Source: Limnohabitans sp. (GTDB taxonomy: Bacteria; Pseudomonadota; Gammaproteobacteria; Burkholderiales; Burkholderiaceae_C). From it: DNA of 64,000 nt. Location of the stretch: the NCBI RefSeq assembly GCF_030158565.1, contig NZ_JAOASQ010000017.1, positions 1,930 through 65,929 on the forward strand. The letters are read 5' to 3'. The position numbers and the translations under genes are program-made. Position 1 is the first letter of the stretch; every line of letters starts with the position of its first letter. The notes below the pieces were generated by a model. It had not been told where the DNA came from. It did not search any database and saw nothing but the letters and a program-made list of their open reading frames with translations. Below are positions 10,349 through 62,517 of the stretch, piece after piece.

Positions 10349-12235
10349 TCAGATCTCGATCTTCGAGCCCAGCTCGACCACCGCGTTGGTGGGCAGGTTC
10401 AGGAACTCGGCCGCTGCACTGGCGTTGTGGTGCATCTGGGCAAAGAGCTTTTCGCGCCAGGTGGCCATGCCGCCGCCAATCGTCGGGATCACGATATCGC
10501 GTGACAGGAAGTAGCTGGTCATCATCGGATCGAGTTTGTAGCCATCGTCTTCAATGGTGGCCAGTGCCGATGGCAAGTCGGGGTTGTCCTTGAAGCCGTA
10601 GTTGACGATGACCTGCCAGCAATCATGCCCCAAGGGCGTGACATCCAGACGCTGGCTCGCGGCCACGCGCGGCAGCTCGTGGCTGCGCACGGTGACAAAC
10701 AGATTGCGCTCGTGCAAAACCTTGTTGTGCTTGAGGTTGTGCAACAAGGCATTGGGCACGGCCCCTGTCTCGGCCGTCAGGAACACGGCCGTGCCCTCCA
10801 CCCGCGTGGGCGCAGAGATGAAAACCGCCTCCAGAAAATCCGTCAACTGCAGGGCATCTGTACGCAAGGACTCGTTGAGCAGGCGTCGGCCATCGTGCCA
10901 GGTCAGCATGAGGGTGAACACGGCTGCGCCGATCATGAGCGGGAACCAGCCGCCGTCAAACAGCTTGAGCAGGTTGGAGGCCCAGAACGCCAGATCGACC
11001 ACAAAGAAGAAACCGGTGGCCCCAATGCACAGCGCCAGCGGCAGCTTCCAGGCGTAACGGATCACAAAGAAGGTGAGCACCGTGGTGATCAGCATGTCGG
11101 TGCACACCGCAATGCCATAAGCGGCGGCCAAGTTGCTCGACGACTTGAACATGACCACCGCCATCACGATGGCCACAAACAAACCCCAGTTCACAAATGG
11201 CATGTAGATCTGCCCAGTGTCGGTCTCGCTGGTGTGCAGCACTTGCAGGCGCGGCAGGTAGCCCAGCTGGATCACCTGTTTGGTCACGCTGAAGGCCCCG
11301 GAGATCAGCGCCTGCGAAGCGATCACGGTGGCCATGGTGGCCAGGCCCACCAAAGGCAGCAAGGCCCAGTCGGGCGCCATCATGAAAAACGGATTTTTGA
11401 CCGCTTCGGGCTCAGACAACAAGAGCGCGCCTTGGCCAAAATAGTTCAGCACCAAGCAAGGCATGACCACGCTGAACCAAGCCAGACGAATGGGCTTTTT
11501 GCCAAAGTGCCCCATGTCCGCATACAGCGCTTCACCGCCTGTGACGCACAACACGACCGCGCCCAAAATGATGAAGGTGGTGCCCGGCTCGTTCCACATG
11601 AAGCTCAAGGCGTAATGCGGACTGATGGCCAACAAGATCTCTGGGCGCTGAACGATGTGCGACACCCCCAGCACAGCGATGGCGGCAAACCAGACCAAGG
11701 TGATCGGGCCAAAGAACTTGCCAATGCCCGCCGTGCCGCGCTTTTGCACCCAAAACAAGCCAAACAAAATCACCAGGGTGAGCGGAATGACCGATTTTTT
11801 GAAGGTGGGCGAAATGACTTCAAGGCCCTCGACGGCCGACAGCACCGAAATCGCGGGGGTGATGACGCCGTCGCCATAAAAAAGACAGGTGCCAAAGATG
11901 CCAACCACCAGCAAAACTTTGCGCAGTTGGGGTTTGTCTTTGACCGATTGCGAAGCGAGCGCCAACATGGCCACCAAGCCACCTTCGCCATGGTTGTCGG
12001 CACGCAACACCAGGACCACGTACTTGACCGACACGATGGTGGTCAAGGTCCAGAAGAAGATGGAAAGGATGCCGTAAACGTTCTCGGGCGTGAAAGGCAC
12101 ATGGCCTGAGCCAAAGACCTCTTTCATGGCATACAGCACGCTGGTGCCGATGTCGCCGTAAACCACGCCAATGGCGCCCAAGGTCAGGGCGGCGAGTGAG
12201 GATTTTGTAGAAGACACAAAAAATGGCCTGACCAT
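10349..12235 (-). CDS. kup: KUP/HAK/KT potassium uptake transporter
   Basis: 628 aa with N-terminal [19 protein letters not shown] and 12 hydrophobic segments plus a cytoplasmic C-domain. Confidence 0.95.
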
Positions 12236-16654: not shown

Positions 16655-19444
16655 TCAGACGACGATGTTGACCAGGCGGCCAGGCACCACGATGACCTTC
16701 TTGGGCGCAGCGCCAGCGGCCTGCTTGACAAAGGCCTCGTTGGCCAAGGCAGCGGCCTCAATCTGCGCTTTGTCGGCCGACGCAGGCACCAGGATGGACC
16801 CGCGCAGCTTGCCGTTGATTTGCAGCATCAGCTCGATCTGGTCGCGCTCCAAAGCCGACTCGTCCACGGTGGGCCAAGGCGCATCGAGCAACTCGCCTGC
16901 AGCTTGGGCAAAACCCAGTTGCTGCCAAACTTCGTCGGTGATGTGCGGGCAGGCGGGGTAAAGCATGCGCATCAAGAGGGAGACGCCTTCGCACAGGGCG
17001 GCGGTATCGCCTGCACTGCCATCGGGCTTGAAATCTTCCAACGCGTTGAGCAGCTTCATGCAGCCGGACACCACGGTGTTGTACTGCATGCGCTCGTAGT
17101 CGTAACCGACTTGCTTGAGCACCAGGTGCATCTCGCGGCGCAAGGCTTTGGCCGCATCGCCCAAGGCGGCTTGGCTCAGGTCTTGGCTTGTGGCCGAACG
17201 CAGCAATTCGTTGTGCTTGAAAGCGAAGTTCCAAACGCGGCGCAAAAAGCGGTAGCTGCCTTCCACGGCAGAGTCGTTCCACTCCAGCGTCACCTCAGGC
17301 GGTGCGGTGAACATGGTGTACAGGCGCGCCGTGTCGGCACCGTAGCGCTCGATCAGGTCTTGCGGGTCCACGCCGTTGTTCTTGGACTTGGACATGGTGC
17401 CCACGCCCTCGTAGTCGATGGCGGTGCCCACGGGCAAGCGGCCATCGCCGCTGTCGGCTTCGTTCTTGAGCTTGGCGCCGATCACCTTGCCGGTCTCGTC
17501 GAGCACATGCTCCACGTCGTGCGGCCAGAAGTAGTCCTTGCCGCCCTTGGCGGTGCGGCGCGAATAGATGTGGTTGAGCACCATGCCCTGCGTGAGCAGC
17601 TTGCTGAAGGGCTCATCGACCTTGACCAGGCCCAAGTCGCGCATGACCTTGGTCCAGAAGCGGGCGTAGAGCAAATGCAGGATGGCGTGCTCGATGCCGC
17701 CGATGTATTGGTCCATGCCGCTGCCGCCAGTGGCGTTGTTCTGGTCCCGCATCCAATAGTCCGCACCCTCTGCCACCATCTTCTCGGTGTTGGTCGGGTC
17801 GCAATAGCGCATGAAGTACCAGGACGAATCCACAAAGGTGTCCATGGTGTCGGTCTCGCGGCGCGCGGGTTTGCCACACACCGGGCAAGTCACGCCCGCG
17901 TGGAAACCTTCGTGCTTGTGCAGCGGGTTGCCCGAACCGTCAGGGATGCAGTCTTGCGGCAACACCACAGGCAGGTCTTTTTCGGGCACGGGCACGGCGC
18001 CGTGTTCATCGCAATGGATGATCGGGATCGGTGTGCCCCAGTAGCGCTGGCGGCTCACGCCCCAGTCGCGCAGACGCCAGGTGGTTTTCTTCTCGCCCAG
18101 GCCTTTGGCAGCCAGCAGTTCGGCCACTTTGGTGACGGCGGCTTTGAAGCCCAAGCCATCGAGTTCGCCGGAGTTGACGCACACGCCATCTTTGGTGCCG
18201 TACCACTCTGACCAAGTTGTCACATCAAAAGAGGCCTTGGCGTTGCCTGCGACGGGCAACGATGTGGAGCCTGCGTCTGAGGCGCCCGGCGCAGGCGACG
18301 ACAAAGCCGCCCCACGCTGAGCCACGACTTGCTTGATCGGCAAGGCGTATTTCAAAGCAAATGCAAAGTCGCGCTCGTCGTGCGCAGGCACGCCCATCAC
18401 GGCGCCATCGCCGTAGCTCATGAGCACGTAATTGCCCACCCAGACCTCGACTTGCACGCCCGTCAAGGGATGCGTGACGAACAGGCCGGTAGCCATGCCC
18501 TTCTTTTCTTGCGTGGCCAACTCGGCTTCGGTCGTGCCGCCGCTCTTGCACTCTTCCAGGAAAGCGGCCAAGGCAGGATTGGAAGCCGCAGCGTGCAGCG
18601 CCAGCGGGTGCTCAGCAGCCACCGCGCAAAAAGTCACACCCATGATGGTGTCGGCACGGGTGGTGAAGACGTACATCTTGCCGTCGCCGATCAGAGCGCC
18701 GTCCGCACCTGCAATGCTGTGCGGGAAGGCGAAGCGCACGCCCTCAGACTTGCCGATCCAGTTTTCCTGCATCAGGCGCACTTTGTCAGGCCAGCCGTTG
18801 AGCGTGGCCTTGTCGTTGCCCAGCTGCACGTGGTCGAGCAACTCTTGCGCGTACTGCGTGATGTTCAGGTAATAGCCAGGGATCTCGCGCTTTTCGACCA
18901 ATGCGCCGGTGCGCCAGCCGCGACCGTCAATCACCTGCTCGTTGGCCAGCACGGTCTGGTCCACCGGATCCCAGTTGACGATCTGGGTCTTGCGGTAGGC
19001 GATGCCTTTTTCCAGCATCTTGAGAAACAGCCATTGGTTCCACTTGTAATAAGTGGGGTCGCAGGTGGCGACTTCGCGCGACCAGTCGATGGCCAAGCCC
19101 ATCGCCTGCATCTGCTTTTTCATGTAAGCGATGTTTTCGTAGGTCCACTTGGCCGGTGGCACACCGTTTTTGAGCGCGGCGTTTTCAGCGGGCAGACCGA
19201 AGGCGTCCCAGCCCATGGGCATGAGGACGTTGTAGCCCTTCATGCGCAGGCTGCGCGTGAGCATGTCGTTGATGGTGTAGTTGCGCACATGGCCCATGTG
19301 CAGCTTGCCGCTGGGGTAGGGCAGCATGGAGCAGGCGTAGAACTTCTTTTTGCTGGCGTCTTCGGTGACGCGGTAGGCATCGCGGGCCGTCCAGCGGGCC
19401 TGGGCTGCGGGTTCGACTTCGAGGTGGTTGTACTTGTCTTGCAT
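16655..19444 (-). CDS. leuS: Leucine--tRNA ligase
   Basis: 929 aa with the class I HIGH-type motif ([13 protein letters not shown]), KMSKS ([10 protein letters not shown]) and the CP1 editing domain. It contains an extra 20-codon palindromic insertion (see findings). Confidence 0.97.
18241..18300. repeat. 60-nt hairpin element (conserved 26-nt centre) embedded in-frame in leuS
   Basis: Arms 18241-18257 and 18284-18300 pair at 15 Watson-Crick positions plus 1 G:T, out of 17. The centre 18258-18283 is the reverse complement of the 19526-19551 centre with 1 mismatch. Confidence 0.8.
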
Positions 19445-19501
19445 AGGGGTCGATTGTAGAGGGCGCTGGGTCTGGGGATCGCTGGTTGGAGGTGCGTTGG
19501 G

Positions 19502-19575
19502 GCCCGCAGGGAGGCAGGCCCGGGCGCCTCAGACGCAGGCTCAACATCGTTGCCCGGGCCTGCCTCCCTTCGGGC
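19502..19575. repeat. Long GC hairpin element with conserved 26-nt centre (intergenic copy, exbD/leuS gap)
   Basis: Perfect 17-bp arms GGGAGGCAGGCCCGGGC (19509-19525) and GCCCGGGCCTGCCTCCC (19552-19568), extendable by 6/7 more pairs. Centre is GCCTCAGACGCAGGCTCAACATCGTT. Confidence 0.8.
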
Positions 19576-26251: not shown

Positions 26252-27238
26252 ATGCTCAACATCTTCACCCTTGCCAACGGCCGTCTCTTTCAAGAAGAGA
26301 TCGAGTCACTGGAAGAACTCTCTCGCTTTCAACCCATTTGGGTTGACCTGGAATCACCCACGGTCGACGAAAAGCGCTGGATCAAACAGTATTACGGCCT
26401 GTCCATCCCTGAAGACGCGATGGACGAGGACATCGAGGAATCCGCCCGCTTCTACGAAGAAGACAATGGCGAGTTGCACATCCGCTCAGACTTTTTGATC
26501 GCCGACGAGGACGAGCCACGCACCGTGCGTTGCGCCTTCATCCTGAACCAGCACAATGCCGACCTGAAGAGCCGTGGCGTGCTGTTTTCAATCCACGACG
26601 AAGACGTACCGGTGTTCCGCTTGCTGCGCCTGCGTGCGCGCCGCGCACCGGGCCTGCTGGAAGATGCCAAGGAAGTGCTGCTCAAGCTCTTTGATGCCGA
26701 CGCCGAATACTCCGCCGACACGCTGGAAGGCATTTACGACAAGCTCGAAACCGCTGGCAAAAAGGTTTTGTCAGGCGACGTGACCGATGCCATGGCCGGT
26801 GAAGTGCTGGGCGCGATTGCCCGCCAGGAAGACTTGAATGGGCGCATCCGCCGCAACGTGATGGACACCCGCCGCGCCGTGAGCTTCATGATGCGCTCGA
26901 AGATGCTCAACGCCGAGCAGTTTGAAGAAGCGCGCCAGATCCTGCGCGACATCGACTCGCTGGACTCGCACACGGCGTTTTTGTTCGACAAGATCAACTT
27001 CTTGATGGACGCCACCGTGGGTTTCATCAACATCAACCAGAACAAGATCATCAAGATTTTCTCGGTGGCCAGCGTCGCCTTGCTGCCCCCCACACTGATT
27101 GCCAGCCTGTACGGCATGAACTTTCAGTACATGCCCGAGCTGTCACAAAAGTGGGGCTACCCGTATGCACTGGCCTTGATGGCCGCCAGCGCCGTGGTGC
27201 CCATGTGGTACTTCCGTCGTCGGGGCTGGTTGAAGTAA
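26252..27238 (+). CDS. corA: Magnesium/cobalt transporter CorA
   Basis: 328 aa with two C-terminal TM helices and the YGMNF signature (LYGMNFQYMPEL). Confidence 0.93.
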   Translation: MLNIFTLANGRLFQEEIESLEELSRFQPIWVDLESPTVDEKRWIKQYYGLSIPEDAMDEDIEESARFYEEDNGELHIRSDFLIADEDEPRTVRCAFILNQHNADLKSRGVLFSIHDEDVPVFRLLRLRARRAPGLLEDAKEVLLKLFDADAEYSADTLEGIYDKLETAGKKVLSGDVTDAMAGEVLGAIARQEDLNGRIRRNVMDTRRAVSFMMRSKMLNAEQFEEARQILRDIDSLDSHTAFLFDKINFLMDATVGFININQNKIIKIFSVASVALLPPTLIASLYGMNFQYMPELSQKWGYPYALALMAASAVVPMWYFRRRGWLK

Positions 27239-27257
27239 GACGCCTTCGGTGGGGGCG

Positions 27258-27337
27258 TTTGTTGCAGCAGTCTGGGGGCGGGCTCCTCAGACGCAAGCTC
27301 AACGTCGTCGCCCGCCCCCAGACTGCTGCAACAAACT
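27258..27337. repeat. Long perfect hairpin element with conserved 26-nt centre (intergenic copy, corA/nucleosidase convergent gap)
   Basis: Perfect 27-bp arms GTTTGTTGCAGCAGTCTGGGGGCGGGC (27258-27284) and their exact reverse complement (27311-27337). The centre TCCTCAGACGCAAGCTCAACGTCGTC is 22/26 identical to the centre at 19526-19551. Confidence 0.8.
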
Positions 27338-27389: not shown

Positions 27390-28142
27390 TTACCTGTGCA
27401 TCAACCACTGCGACAAGATGGCCAAGCTGTAGCGGCTGGCCACGTCGCGTATGAAGCGGTTGAAGTCAATGTGTGCATCGTCGTCTGCGCGGTCTGAAAC
27501 CGTGCGGACCGCCGCAAACGGCATGCCGTAGTCCAGACACACTTGTGCCACTGCGGCCCCCTCCATCTCAACCGCCAAAGCCTCGGGCAAACTGCGCCGC
27601 AAAACCTGACTTTCGGCTGTGGTCGACACAAAGCGGTCACCACTGACGATCAGGCCCTGGTGCACCCGTGGCGCGTGCAGATGGAAATCGGCGATGGCTT
27701 GTGCGCCCAGATGTCGCGCAGGGTCTGACAACACCTGCGCGGCCGCTGCCGCCAAAGCGTGTGACAAGGCGGGGTCGGTGTCAAAGCGCGACCGTCCATA
27801 CAAAGGCACCTCGTGCTTGGGGAACAAGGGCGAAGCATCCATGTCGTGTTGCAAAAAGCCACTGGCCACAACCACATCACCCACTTGTGCCTCAGCGGAC
27901 AATCCGCCGGCGGCACCGGTGAACACCAGCGCATCCATCTTGAAGCGCTCCAGCAAGACCGTCGCCGTGGTGGCAGCCGCCACTTTGCCAATCCGTGACA
28001 ACACCGCCACCACCTCGTGACCCTGCCAGTGGCCCACCCAGAAATCGCGGCCTGCCACGCGCACGCATTGCTCATCAGGCATGACCGCCAGCACAGCAGC
28101 CAACTCCTCGTGCATGGCGCTCATGATGCCGATCACTGCCAT
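27390..28142 (-). CDS. Nucleoside phosphorylase family 1 protein, MTA/SAH nucleosidase-like
   Basis: ORF trimmed to the ATG at 28142 (MAVIGIMSAMHEELAAV...). It has the PNP_UDP_1 pattern (VFTGAAGGL...EMEGAAVAQVC). Confidence 0.8.
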   Translation of the reverse strand: MAVIGIMSAMHEELAAVLAVMPDEQCVRVAGRDFWVGHWQGHEVVAVLSRIGKVAAATTATVLLERFKMDALVFTGAAGGLSAEAQVGDVVVASGFLQHDMDASPLFPKHEVPLYGRSRFDTDPALSHALAAAAAQVLSDPARHLGAQAIADFHLHAPRVHQGLIVSGDRFVSTTAESQVLRRSLPEALAVEMEGAAVAQVCLDYGMPFAAVRTVSDRADDDAHIDFNRFIRDVASRYSLAILSQWLMHR

Positions 28143-28173
28143 GGGTTCTCCATTGTCAAAATTCAAATCGCAT

Positions 28174-28202
28174 GAAAAAAGCGGCCCATCTTGAGCCGCT
28201 TT
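28174..28202 (-). terminator. Candidate intrinsic terminator after fadD
   Basis: Minus strand forms AAGCGGC-loop-GCCGCTT followed by TTTTTT (plus-strand A-run 28175-28180), about 30 nt past the fadD stop. Confidence 0.55.
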
Positions 28203-28232
28203 CCAGTGTACCGGTGCTGACGCACCGCCCAT

Positions 28233-51914: not shown

Positions 51915-52106
51915 TTGCCATGCCGGACCTGCTCCGGCATCCATCGTTCACGAGACCTGCCCTTGGCTTTGTCATGCCGGACCTGCTCCGGCATCCATGG
52001 TTGAACAGACATGGACCCCGGATCAAGTCCGGGGTGACAGATGGGGAACGCGGAGTGAGAGATAGGGAATGCTAGGTGACAAATGGGGACGTGCGGTGTG
52101 ACGCAT
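51915..52106. repeat. Composite REP-like block, copy 1 (two direct units, one inverted unit, 21-nt minisatellite)
   Basis: Units are TTGCCATGCCGGACCTGCTCCGGCATCCATCG, TTGTCATGCCGGACCTGCTCCGGCATCCATGG, and the inverted unit ACCCCGGATCAAGTCCGGGGTGACA, followed by the 21-nt repeats. Confidence 0.75.
52034..52105. repeat. 21-nt tandem repeat, about 3.4 units (GTGACAGATGGGGAACGCGGA-like)
   Basis: Units at 52034, 52055 and 52076 plus a partial unit at 52097. Each begins with the GTGACA right arm of the adjacent hairpin. Confidence 0.75.
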
Positions 52107-52312
52107 GACCTGCCCCTGGCTTTGTCATGCCGGACCTGATCCGGTATCCATCGTTCACGAGACTTGCACTTGACTTTGTCATGCCGGACTTGATCCGGCA
52201 TCCATGGTTAAACAGGCATGGGCCCCGGATCAAGTCCGGGGTGACAGATGGGGAACGCTGGGTGACAGATGAGGAACGCGAGGTGACAGATGGGGAATGC
52301 GGAGTGACAGCA
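52107..52312. repeat. Composite REP-like block, copy 2 (tandem duplicate of 51915-52106)
   Basis: The order of elements is the same as in copy 1, with point differences (for example CCGGACCTGATCCGGTATCC and CCGGACTTGATCCGGCATCC). It ends 5 nt before the GST stop codon. Confidence 0.75.
52241..52312. repeat. 21-nt tandem repeat, about 3.4 units
   Basis: Units are GTGACAGATGGGGAACGCTGG, GTGACAGATGAGGAACGCGAG, GTGACAGATGGGGAATGCGGA and the partial GTGACAGCA. Confidence 0.8.
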
Positions 52313-55950: not shown

Positions 55951-56094
55951 GTCGTCCCGGGCGAAGAAGCGGTATCCATTGCGCAGTGCGGCCCTTTGTT
56001 TTGTCATCCCGGGCGGAGACCCGGGATCCAGTGTGCAGCGCTGACCTTTGCAAATGCTGGTTGCGTGCAGTGGATCCCGGATCGAGTCCGGGAT
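55951..56094. repeat. Composite REP-like block (degenerate unit, direct unit, inverted unit)
   Basis: Units are GTCGTCCCGGGCGAAGAAGCGGTATCCATTG (degenerate), TTGTCATCCCGGGCGGAGACCCGGGATCCAGTG (56001-56033) and the inverted GATCCCGGATCGAGTCCGGGATGACA (56073-56098). The layout matches the 51.9-52.3 kb blocks. Confidence 0.75.
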
Positions 56095-56220
56095 GACAAA
56101 CTGAAAGTCCAGGACAAACTGAAAGTCCAGGACAAACTGAAAGTCCAGGACAAACTGAAAGTCCGGAACAAACTGAAAGTCCGGAACAAACTGAAAGTTC
56201 GAGACAAACTGAAGGTTCGG
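56095..56220. repeat. 18-nt tandem repeat x7 (GACAAACTGAAAGTCCAG)
   Basis: Seven contiguous 18-nt units. The first three are identical and later units drift (AACAAACTGAAAGTCCGG, GACAAACTGAAGGTTCGG). Two more degenerate units extend to about 56262. The array grows out of the right arm of the adjacent hairpin. Confidence 0.9.
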
Positions 56221-56293
56221 GATGACAGATTAAAGGCCCGGGATGACGGATGGGATCTGACATTTGCAGACTTCACGGGGTGTGATCTATAAG

Positions 56294-62488: not shown

Positions 62489-62517
62489 TGTCATCCCGGA
62501 CTCGATCCGGGATGACA
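62489..62517. repeat. Perfect 29-nt palindrome of the REP-like family
   Basis: TGTCATCCCGGA-CTCGA-TCCGGGATGACA. Its first 25 nt are identical to the reverse complement of the inverted unit at 56073-56098. Confidence 0.8.

Follow-up and report, generated by a model that had tools for sequence, protein, structure and literature searches.

An in-frame insertion in leuS of Limnohabitans is one copy of a very small palindromic repeat family with a conserved loop and variable stems

How does a palindrome come to lie in frame inside an essential aminoacyl-tRNA synthetase gene, and to what does it belong? The stretch considered here, called the window, comprises 64,000 nucleotides of a Limnohabitans sp. 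contig (NZ_JAOASQ010000017.1), and the gene is leuS, which encodes leucyl-tRNA synthetase (LeuRS). The first-pass annotation, made from the sequence alone, described at 18241-18300 a palindrome with arms CGTTGCCTGCGACGGGC and GCCCGGCGCAGGCGACG, paired at 15 Watson-Crick positions plus one G:T out of 17, and noted that these 60 nt are 20 in-frame leuS codons; both descriptions are accurate. The segment is one copy of a very small GC-rich palindromic repeat family that is confined to Limnohabitans and Rhodoferax. The leuS copy is due to an old insertion, specific to the lineage, which added about 25 codons in frame to a part of the editing (CP1) region where indels are tolerated. The gene, its hairpin (copy T0) and two intergenic copies (T1 and T4) have the following window coordinates.

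16655-19444, minus strand: leuS, leucine--tRNA ligase, 929 amino acids, the host gene, defined by its open reading frame (ORF) and translation.
18230-18322, minus strand: variable segment of leuS, the full insertion footprint, with 31 codons where empty alleles and Neisseria have 6.
18284-18308, minus strand: 5' arm of the leuS hairpin, sense strand GGCTTTGTCGTCGCCTGCGCCGGGC; pairing is maintained across orthologues.
18258-18283, minus strand: conserved 26-nt apical loop of copy T0, GCCTCAGACGCAGGCTCCACATCGTT, which in the leuS frame gives A S D A G S T S L.
18233-18257, minus strand: 3' arm of the leuS hairpin, sense strand GCCCGTCGCAGGCAACGCCAAGGCC.
19502-19575, plus strand: hairpin of copy T1 in the exbD-leuS spacer, with arms at 19502-19525 and 19552-19575 and the loop at 19526-19551.
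27257-27336, plus strand: copy T4, a perfect hairpin with 27-bp arms and the loop, variant TCCTCAGACGCAAGCTCAACGTCGTC, at 27284-27309.

The identity of the gene is clear, its product matching the LeuRS of N. gonorrhoeae (6Q89) over the full length (E=0) and sharing 81-94% identity with 120 homologues named leucine--tRNA ligase. The alignment with the Neisseria protein runs over the whole length and is interrupted only by a gap of 25 residues, precisely at the leuS segment. Many of the 120 homologues have the short form 'QQVV-SVKDQA-FD', and the empty form 'VV-SVKDQA-FD' is found in most Comamonadaceae and in many Limnohabitans whose LeuS is 85-92% identical. The short form was confirmed at the DNA level; empty alleles are those of L052, L038, L041, L046, L058 and L059. 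A sample of 80 metagenome leuS loci, drawn with the N-terminal 366 residues as query and so unbiased as to the insert, gives the same picture: nearly all Comamonadaceae are empty, and filled alleles occur only in Limnohabitans- or Rhodoferax-like lineages. LeuS orthologues thus show the segment to be an insertion, as the first-pass annotation had proposed, and the finding that the annotation named as a refutation, a homologous segment encoded by non-palindromic DNA, was made in no LeuS orthologue examined. The proposed unit has to be enlarged. The leuS palindrome is 76 nt long, not 60 (18233-18308), with arms of 25 nt each of which 21 of 25 pairs are Watson-Crick, and excision of the 60 nt, which was said to leave an intact frame, does not regain the ancestral state: relative to empty alleles 31 codons stand in place of 6, so that 25 have been gained.

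On the LeuS tree filled alleles are interspersed with empty ones, and the flanking haplotype tracks the allele, 'EWYATKD-GV' accompanying filled and 'EWYGDKQNCV' empty forms. In one filled/empty pair (L030 and L041) the upstream spacer is 99-100% identical, leuS near the site just 81-91%. The haplotype association and this mosaic identity point to an old allele class that has been moved between lineages by homologous recombination. Unrelated sequence of anything between 0 and about 80 residues is tolerated at the site, in what is a single-copy essential gene. Among its states are a deletion derivative (L057) in which 66 nt are missing and ...GCCTTG is joined to GCCTCG..., a tandem pair of diverged element copies (L090, 11198-11334) and a copy in reverse orientation (L082). 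Every one of more than 50 leuS alleles is in frame; from this, in a gene of that kind, we infer that the segment is translated and the site permissive. The product, of which SSPASGASDASSTSLPNAGNAK is a predicted stretch, would be a Ser/Ala/Gly/Pro-rich loop, a tolerated passenger in LeuRS, and the leuS copy appears since to have been lost, decayed, duplicated, flipped or recombinationally exchanged in various lineages. An AlphaFold2 model of whole LeuRS from a 45-sequence, low-diversity alignment has a mean pLDDT of 43.8, too low to judge surface exposure. A HMMER scan of 1.84 billion representatives with the 30-residue insert returned only a spurious match to a repetitive adhesin-like protein (P0241).

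Other insertions have used the same place. A non-palindromic, unrelated insert of about 37 residues (ARNDEVVVHEYKDNVSGHAHREL...) occurs at this LeuRS site in proteins P0009, P0010, P0108, P0111 and P0116 and in loci L011 and L136, and its scattered placement on the tree suggests that segments have been exchanged by recombination. The leuS site of L121 (about 11165-11310) has another palindromic family, with loop GTAAGGGTATGCCCCGT, in two inverted copies.

The first-pass annotation also reported the leuS centre at two intergenic places. The match at 19526-19551 is indeed 25/26 (with the sense strand of 18258-18283), and the third match has the 21/26 identity given for it, at a position that is one off and should read 27284-27309. 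A search of the window for the centre with up to 3 mismatches finds exactly these three sites, against 0.00 expected from 100 shuffles. The intergenic copies are much better hairpins than the leuS copy. The latter has an RNA fold of -45.5 kcal/mol with a z-score of -2.5, modest relative to shuffled controls; T1, with 24-bp arms, has -66.8 kcal/mol (z -7.3) and T4 -64.2 kcal/mol (z -8.0). T1 has the exbD stop (19627) on one side and the leuS start (19444) on the other, exbD being identified by a Pfam match of its product, and its loop is antisense to exbD/leuS transcription. T4 is between two convergent genes, a corA-like gene (26252-27238, plus strand) and a PNP_UDP_1/MTA-nucleosidase-like gene (27390-28232, minus strand), the latter referred to below as mtnN.

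The unit common to the sites is a core of about 36 nt, made of a 4-5-bp inner stem, (C)GGGC/GCCC(G), around the 26-nt non-palindromic spacer that forms the loop. Beyond the core each site has its own arms of 20-25 bp (27 bp at T4 of the window). In a set of 62 unique copies the loop varies only at positions 1, 13 and 26. Of the stem, the first four pairs hardly vary, and positions 6-24 are paired in 80-100% of copies with 3-4 pair types per position. As those copies were chosen on loop sequence, divergence was re-measured on samples not so chosen. In 7 leuS copies, chosen by protein or N-terminal similarity, the loop differs at 6.2%, the arms at 25.7% and flanking third codon positions at 33%; in 9 non-coding T1 copies, chosen through leuS, the values are 4.5% for the loop, 27% for the arms and 31% for the flanking spacer. 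The loop therefore evolves 5-7 times more slowly than neutral flanks. Its nine codons carry 0-1 synonymous change at loci where about 35% of codons in flanking leuS differ synonymously. The stems change in a different way. Double-sided changes are found in 17 of the 25 stem pairs of leuS orthologues, and 84.7% of cells in these stems are paired, against 69.4% when shuffled and 28-46% when the partner is slid. Arm-swapping by inversion was rejected as the source of the compensatory changes, since a perfect palindrome that is inverted keeps its arms unchanged.

Only the A-type (canonical) loop occurs at several loci; types B-E are diverged, restricted to the leuS site, belong to other clades and represent decayed copies. 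One diverged leuS type differs from the canonical loop only by the symmetric pair of changes G7>T and C20>A. By inspection the loop has no dyad symmetry and no consensus match, and it was rejected both as a hix-like 26-bp invertase site and as a site for integration host factor. Mimicry of tRNA-Leu or its anticodon for LeuRS autoregulation was likewise ruled out, other copies being in unrelated genes. A single chimeric loop is present in L006 (2517-2542), where the start is that of the G..T variant and the end that of the T..C variant; its arms do not pair, the left one coming from one copy in a UvrA-like gene and the right one from the neighbouring inverted copy, and it is either the result of a recombinational inversion between two inverted loops or a misassembly of that metagenome-assembled genome (MAG).

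An exact-pattern scan of one genome per species in 185,579 species yields 50 loci. All are of Limnohabitans or Rhodoferax type except a chance match that has no stem and one mis-binned contig. The latter (L009, CALQKH020000007.1) is labelled as an Akkermansia muciniphila MAG and has a Limnohabitans-type leuS with the insert, so that it is almost certainly mis-binned. Clustering of the flanks gives about seven site types in two neighbourhoods, leuS with 9 kb to either side and one UvrA-like gene. T0 in leuS accounts for 20 loci and has an identical position in both genera; T1 in the exbD-leuS spacer accounts for 13, and T4 in the corA-mtnN spacer, where both orientations occur, for 7. Exact-core copies number 1-3 per Limnohabitans genome, complete genomes having one or two, at leuS; in the complete genome CP171842 the pattern matches at just two places, separated by 1.27 kb. 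Sites are gained and lost independently of each other among relatives. No element match was found in viral contigs or in plasmids.

The second coding host is a double-length UvrA-like ORF (>1627 amino acids, with several ABC modules), found at

3113-7996 of L036, minus strand: double-length UvrA-like ORF.
3387-7988 of L027, minus strand: double-length UvrA-like ORF.

It has four in-frame positions of the element, three forward and one reverse, and two of the copies are in linkers immediately before a Walker-A module. One frame, GCC TCA GAC... (ASDAGSTSL or SSDASSTSS), is common to the four forward coding copies, leuS included, the two other forward frames being also open; reverse coding copies are stop-free and read DDVELASEE or DAIKLAPKE. 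A search around one UvrA linker gave mostly fragments and no close empty orthologue. Outside leuS the core is thus present in spacers between genes as well as in another gene that encodes a protein, and it is translatable in every case, which bears out the first-pass annotation.

Some comparisons between loci bear on how the arms are made. At three sites the sequences indicate that one arm is native flank and the other its inverted copy. The first is a 244-nt block that L060 and L117 have and L139 lacks, with the structure [inner stem-loop-right arm]-spacer-[left arm-loop-inner stem]. The flanks that are shared with L139 form the outer arm of both hairpins, and their complements are inside the block. 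This is the single alignable case of an empty and a filled site, and it shows no direct target duplication but inverted copies of both flanks. Only L060 and L117 have this spacer, which ruled it out as part of a larger conserved composite element. The second site is the corA-mtnN spacer, where the left arm of the hairpin of L025 matches unpaired native sequence in L020; the L020 spacer itself has the loop in the opposite orientation with unrelated arms. The third is leuS, whose outer right (3') arm, GCCAAGGCC, resembles the native sequence of the empty site, GTCAAGGAC. Two further comparisons show copying over about 1 kb and short-patch replacement of hairpins. The leuS copy of L060 has the inner stem GTCGGGGG(A)CGCCGG and the rare C17 variant of the loop in common with a copy that lies in a spacer at a distance of 1.3 kb. 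Between the window and L141 flanking leuS differs by 2.6% (97.4% identical), and the arms differ at 12 of 50 positions.

The reading that we favour, with little more than even confidence, is that the element is a low-copy palindromic passenger, similar in behaviour to the Rickettsia palindromic elements (RPEs), which is copied locally, probably by template switching or snap-back. The core, a short inverted repeat with its 26-nt spacer, would be copied over a short distance and apparently with no dedicated transposase, the simplest route being a switch of the replication template onto an existing core. The freshly copied inverted repeat could then snap back, prime on its own nascent strand and copy the adjoining flank in inverted form. 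One arm would in this way be native DNA and the other its inverted duplicate, and there would be neither terminal repeats nor a target duplication. Quasipalindrome template switching, which is an established mutational mechanism in bacteria (PMC7202029, PMC6357072), together with short-patch conversion may then keep the diverging arms complementary. The element would persist in LeuRS and the UvrA-like protein as a flexible Ser/Ala/Gly/Pro-rich loop at permissive positions, and conservation of the 26-nt loop is provisionally assigned to gene conversion limited to the core combined with selection on whatever recognises the loop.

Several observations weigh against this account. The loop is conserved between genera and also in genomes with one detected copy (L016 and L024), where neutral decay is expected yet absent, so that conversion alone is insufficient. 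Template switching or snap-back is deduced from three comparisons, and the L139 case may be a complex deletion instead. T4 of the window and of L117 are alike in the outer 9 bp of the arm and different in the inner arm, which does not fit an element made of an inner part proper and an outer part taken from the flank. Diverged copies, or a master element, may have escaped a genome scan that used an exact pattern. Translation of the leuS segment, finally, is itself read from the intact frames.

The conservation of the loop, which holds between species and genera, in either orientation and in coding as well as non-coding copies, is not accounted for by peptide selection, by a strand-specific RNA role or by concerted evolution alone. 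It is possible, if rather doubtful, that a trans-acting factor recognises the loop and serves either propagation of the element or a function of the host. Put more broadly, and only tentatively, the loop may be the heritable part that some protein or RNA recognises in a hairpin element of a kind not described before, with stems rebuilt from the flank at each copying, or the copies may be the sites of a small hairpin system of the host.

The host version of this idea is the strongest alternative to local copying of a passenger, and we consider it unlikely without dismissing it. It holds that the stem presents the 26-nt loop to a trans-acting protein or RNA, that the copies form a small regulon and that the leuS copy is useful. 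Recognition could be at the DNA level (hairpin, cruciform or duplex, as in low-copy chromosome-organisation sites) or at the RNA level (stability, processing or sense-antisense kissing). The slow evolution of the loop relative to neutral flanks in coding and non-coding copies, between genera and at synonymous sites, is what such a signal would show, as are the compensatory changes that maintain the stems, the low copy number at positions conserved across species, the placement of coding copies at domain linkers and the perfect complementarity of sense and antisense loops. However, the orientation relative to transcription varies, T0 being sense, T1 antisense and the copies in the UvrA gene and at T4 both. 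The sites are independently present or absent in close relatives with no decayed T1 intermediates, most relatives, including most Comamonadaceae, have no copy, there is no obvious theme among the host genes, and loops decay at leuS in some clades. T1 is also upstream of the likely leuS promoter: it is 43 nt upstream of a conserved TACAAT that is itself 11 nt before the leuS ATG, and it probably does not belong to the leuS transcript. For this reason, and because T0 and T1 occur independently, a long-range T1-T0 pairing in one leuS mRNA was ruled out. Nor does the window offer a known RNA class or a partner. Rfam 15 gives no match at the gathering threshold in the window, with just sub-threshold generic miRNA-hairpin matches on T1, and no complementary partner sequence of 11 nt or more is present elsewhere in the window. 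A terminator scan reported neither T1 nor T4, which have a 26-nt loop and no T tail, and a terminator function of the hairpins was ruled out for want of a T tract.

The heptamer CTACAAT that contains this motif is at 19455-19461 of the window (minus strand) and is conserved 10-12 nt before the leuS ATG in every aligned locus, which suggests a putative -10 box and a nearly leaderless leuS mRNA. It was not called by a simple promoter scan.

A classical non-autonomous transposon is quite improbable. The element would then be a MITE (a miniature transposable element with inverted repeats), a repetitive extragenic palindromic (REP) sequence or REPIN, or an IS200/IS605-derived PATE, a transposase or RAYT acting in trans would read the tip of the hairpin, and the arms would diverge fast. 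That the element forms a hairpin, is repeated in both orientations and is polymorphic in presence agrees with this, and the exbD-leuS and corA-mtnN spacers, in which a REP-like family coexists, have been occupied repeatedly and independently with different arms, which suggests recurrent insertion. Against it, the termini are not conserved, the arms being wholly different between sites, and native flank sequence is present within them. The one alignable insertion has no target-site duplication, no locus type of the exact-pattern genome scan has a transposase beside its core, viral contigs and plasmids gave no copies, and about seven sites in two neighbourhoods are not the dispersed pattern of a transposon.

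The idea that there is no shared element, only a hypervariable low-complexity linker with likeness by coincidence, convergence or assembly artefact, can point to the unrelated inserts that this site takes and to the low complexity of the encoded peptide, but it is effectively refuted by the 25/26-nt identity between copies (expectation 0), by the recurrence of the same core with independent arms at the same positions in dozens of independently assembled isolate genomes and MAGs, and by the conservation of synonymous loop sites.

The comparison with RPEs that the first-pass annotation drew stands for behaviour and fails for the type of element, as there is no conservation over the full length, the sites are about seven, the unit differs from the proposed 60 nt and no machinery for transposition is apparent. 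RPEs have a length of about 150 bp and comprise ten families, with 44 insertions in R. conorii; they are in-frame palindromic hairpins in unrelated, often essential genes and in non-coding DNA, encode a peptide that is tolerated, and are found at the same site across species and sporadic in occurrence (PMC10969869). The Limnohabitans element likewise forms a stable hairpin (arms of 24-27 bp, -45 to -67 kcal/mol, z -2.5 to -8) and is in frame in unrelated genes (LeuRS and, with 4 copies, the UvrA-like gene) as well as at two intergenic sites; its predicted peptide appears to be tolerated, its site is common to species and its presence is sporadic. RPEs are conserved along their length and AT-rich, whereas this element is 60-80 nt long and GC-rich with only the central 36 nt or so common to sites. 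Its arms are locus-specific and partly made of flank, its roughly seven sites are in two neighbourhoods rather than in tens dispersed per genome, and its hosts are free-living Betaproteobacteria; the comparison is with the published description of RPEs. The annotation knew of no described equivalent in this lineage, and a search of open-access literature likewise found no description of such an element in Limnohabitans.

Other known systems are more distant. In REP sequences the stem is the conserved, recognised part, and they are extragenic and number hundreds per genome. They and the related BIMEs and REPINs resemble the present element as GC-rich imperfect palindromes at the 3' ends of genes, with a BIME-type conserved centre between inverted units; here, in contrast, the stems vary, the loop is conserved, copies are inside coding sequences and there are about seven sites. 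Bacterial MITEs may sit in ORFs and create in-frame fusions (PMC10969869). The Correia, ERIC, BOX and QMITE repeats are alike in being small, non-autonomous and able to do so. The defining marks of MITEs are terminal inverted repeats that are conserved and duplications of the target site, whereas here the outer arms are unrelated between sites and the single alignable case lacks a target-site duplication. In quasipalindrome template switching, as known from E. coli, one arm of an imperfect inverted repeat is copied onto the other (PMC7202029, PMC6357072). This predicts concerted, seemingly compensatory arm changes and outward extension of the palindrome in the absence of selection, but it is a mechanism and not an element family, and it leaves the reach of the core to new sites and the conservation of the loop unaccounted for. 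Integron attC sites are also recombination hairpins that are recognised by structure and differ in sequence between copies. In attC sites short boxes at the stem base are conserved and the centre is variable, whereas the element here has an invariant centre, a variable base, no pattern of R''/R' boxes and no integron context.

The in-frame insertion as such surprises only modestly; more deserving of attention are the invariance of the loop, the rebuilding of the stems and the very short range over which copies are made. A selfish palindrome translated in an essential protein is a phenomenon that would now extend from the obligate intracellular Rickettsia to abundant free-living freshwater Betaproteobacteria, and one LeuRS site with natural filled, empty, deleted, duplicated and flipped alleles is a system in which to study how proteins absorb inserts. 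An invariant loop with compensating stems and arms built from the flank suggests that short inverted repeats may seed and extend palindromes by template switching with no transposase. If the loop is a recognition site, it would belong to a new trans-acting hairpin-recognition system, and if either a loop-binding factor or a host hairpin system is real, conservation of 26 nt across two genera is a functional signal and not a by-product. In practice, inserts of this kind make proteins look more diverged than they are and can disrupt the assembly of MAGs and the calling of genes.

Other repeats are found in the same spacers and in the window. A REP-like hairpin (GTGGGAGsGAGCCCCTGC...GCAGGGGCTCGCTCCCAC) replaces or adjoins the element in the exbD-leuS spacer of other Limnohabitans, at

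L016, about 260 nt upstream of the leuS start: REP-like hairpin.
L029: REP-like hairpin.
L052, 2850-2960: REP-like hairpin.
L058, 9850-9960: REP-like hairpin.

In the same spacer of L016 there are also some five 18-nt units in tandem, GGGGATGGCTCCCACAAG. The window itself has a second family of hairpin repeats, unrelated to the element and marked by the motif GTCATsCCGGA, at 51917-52245, 56003-56247 and 62490-62516; the motif has 13 matches with at most 1 mismatch, against 2.8 expected, and several of its copies are arranged as inverted pairs.

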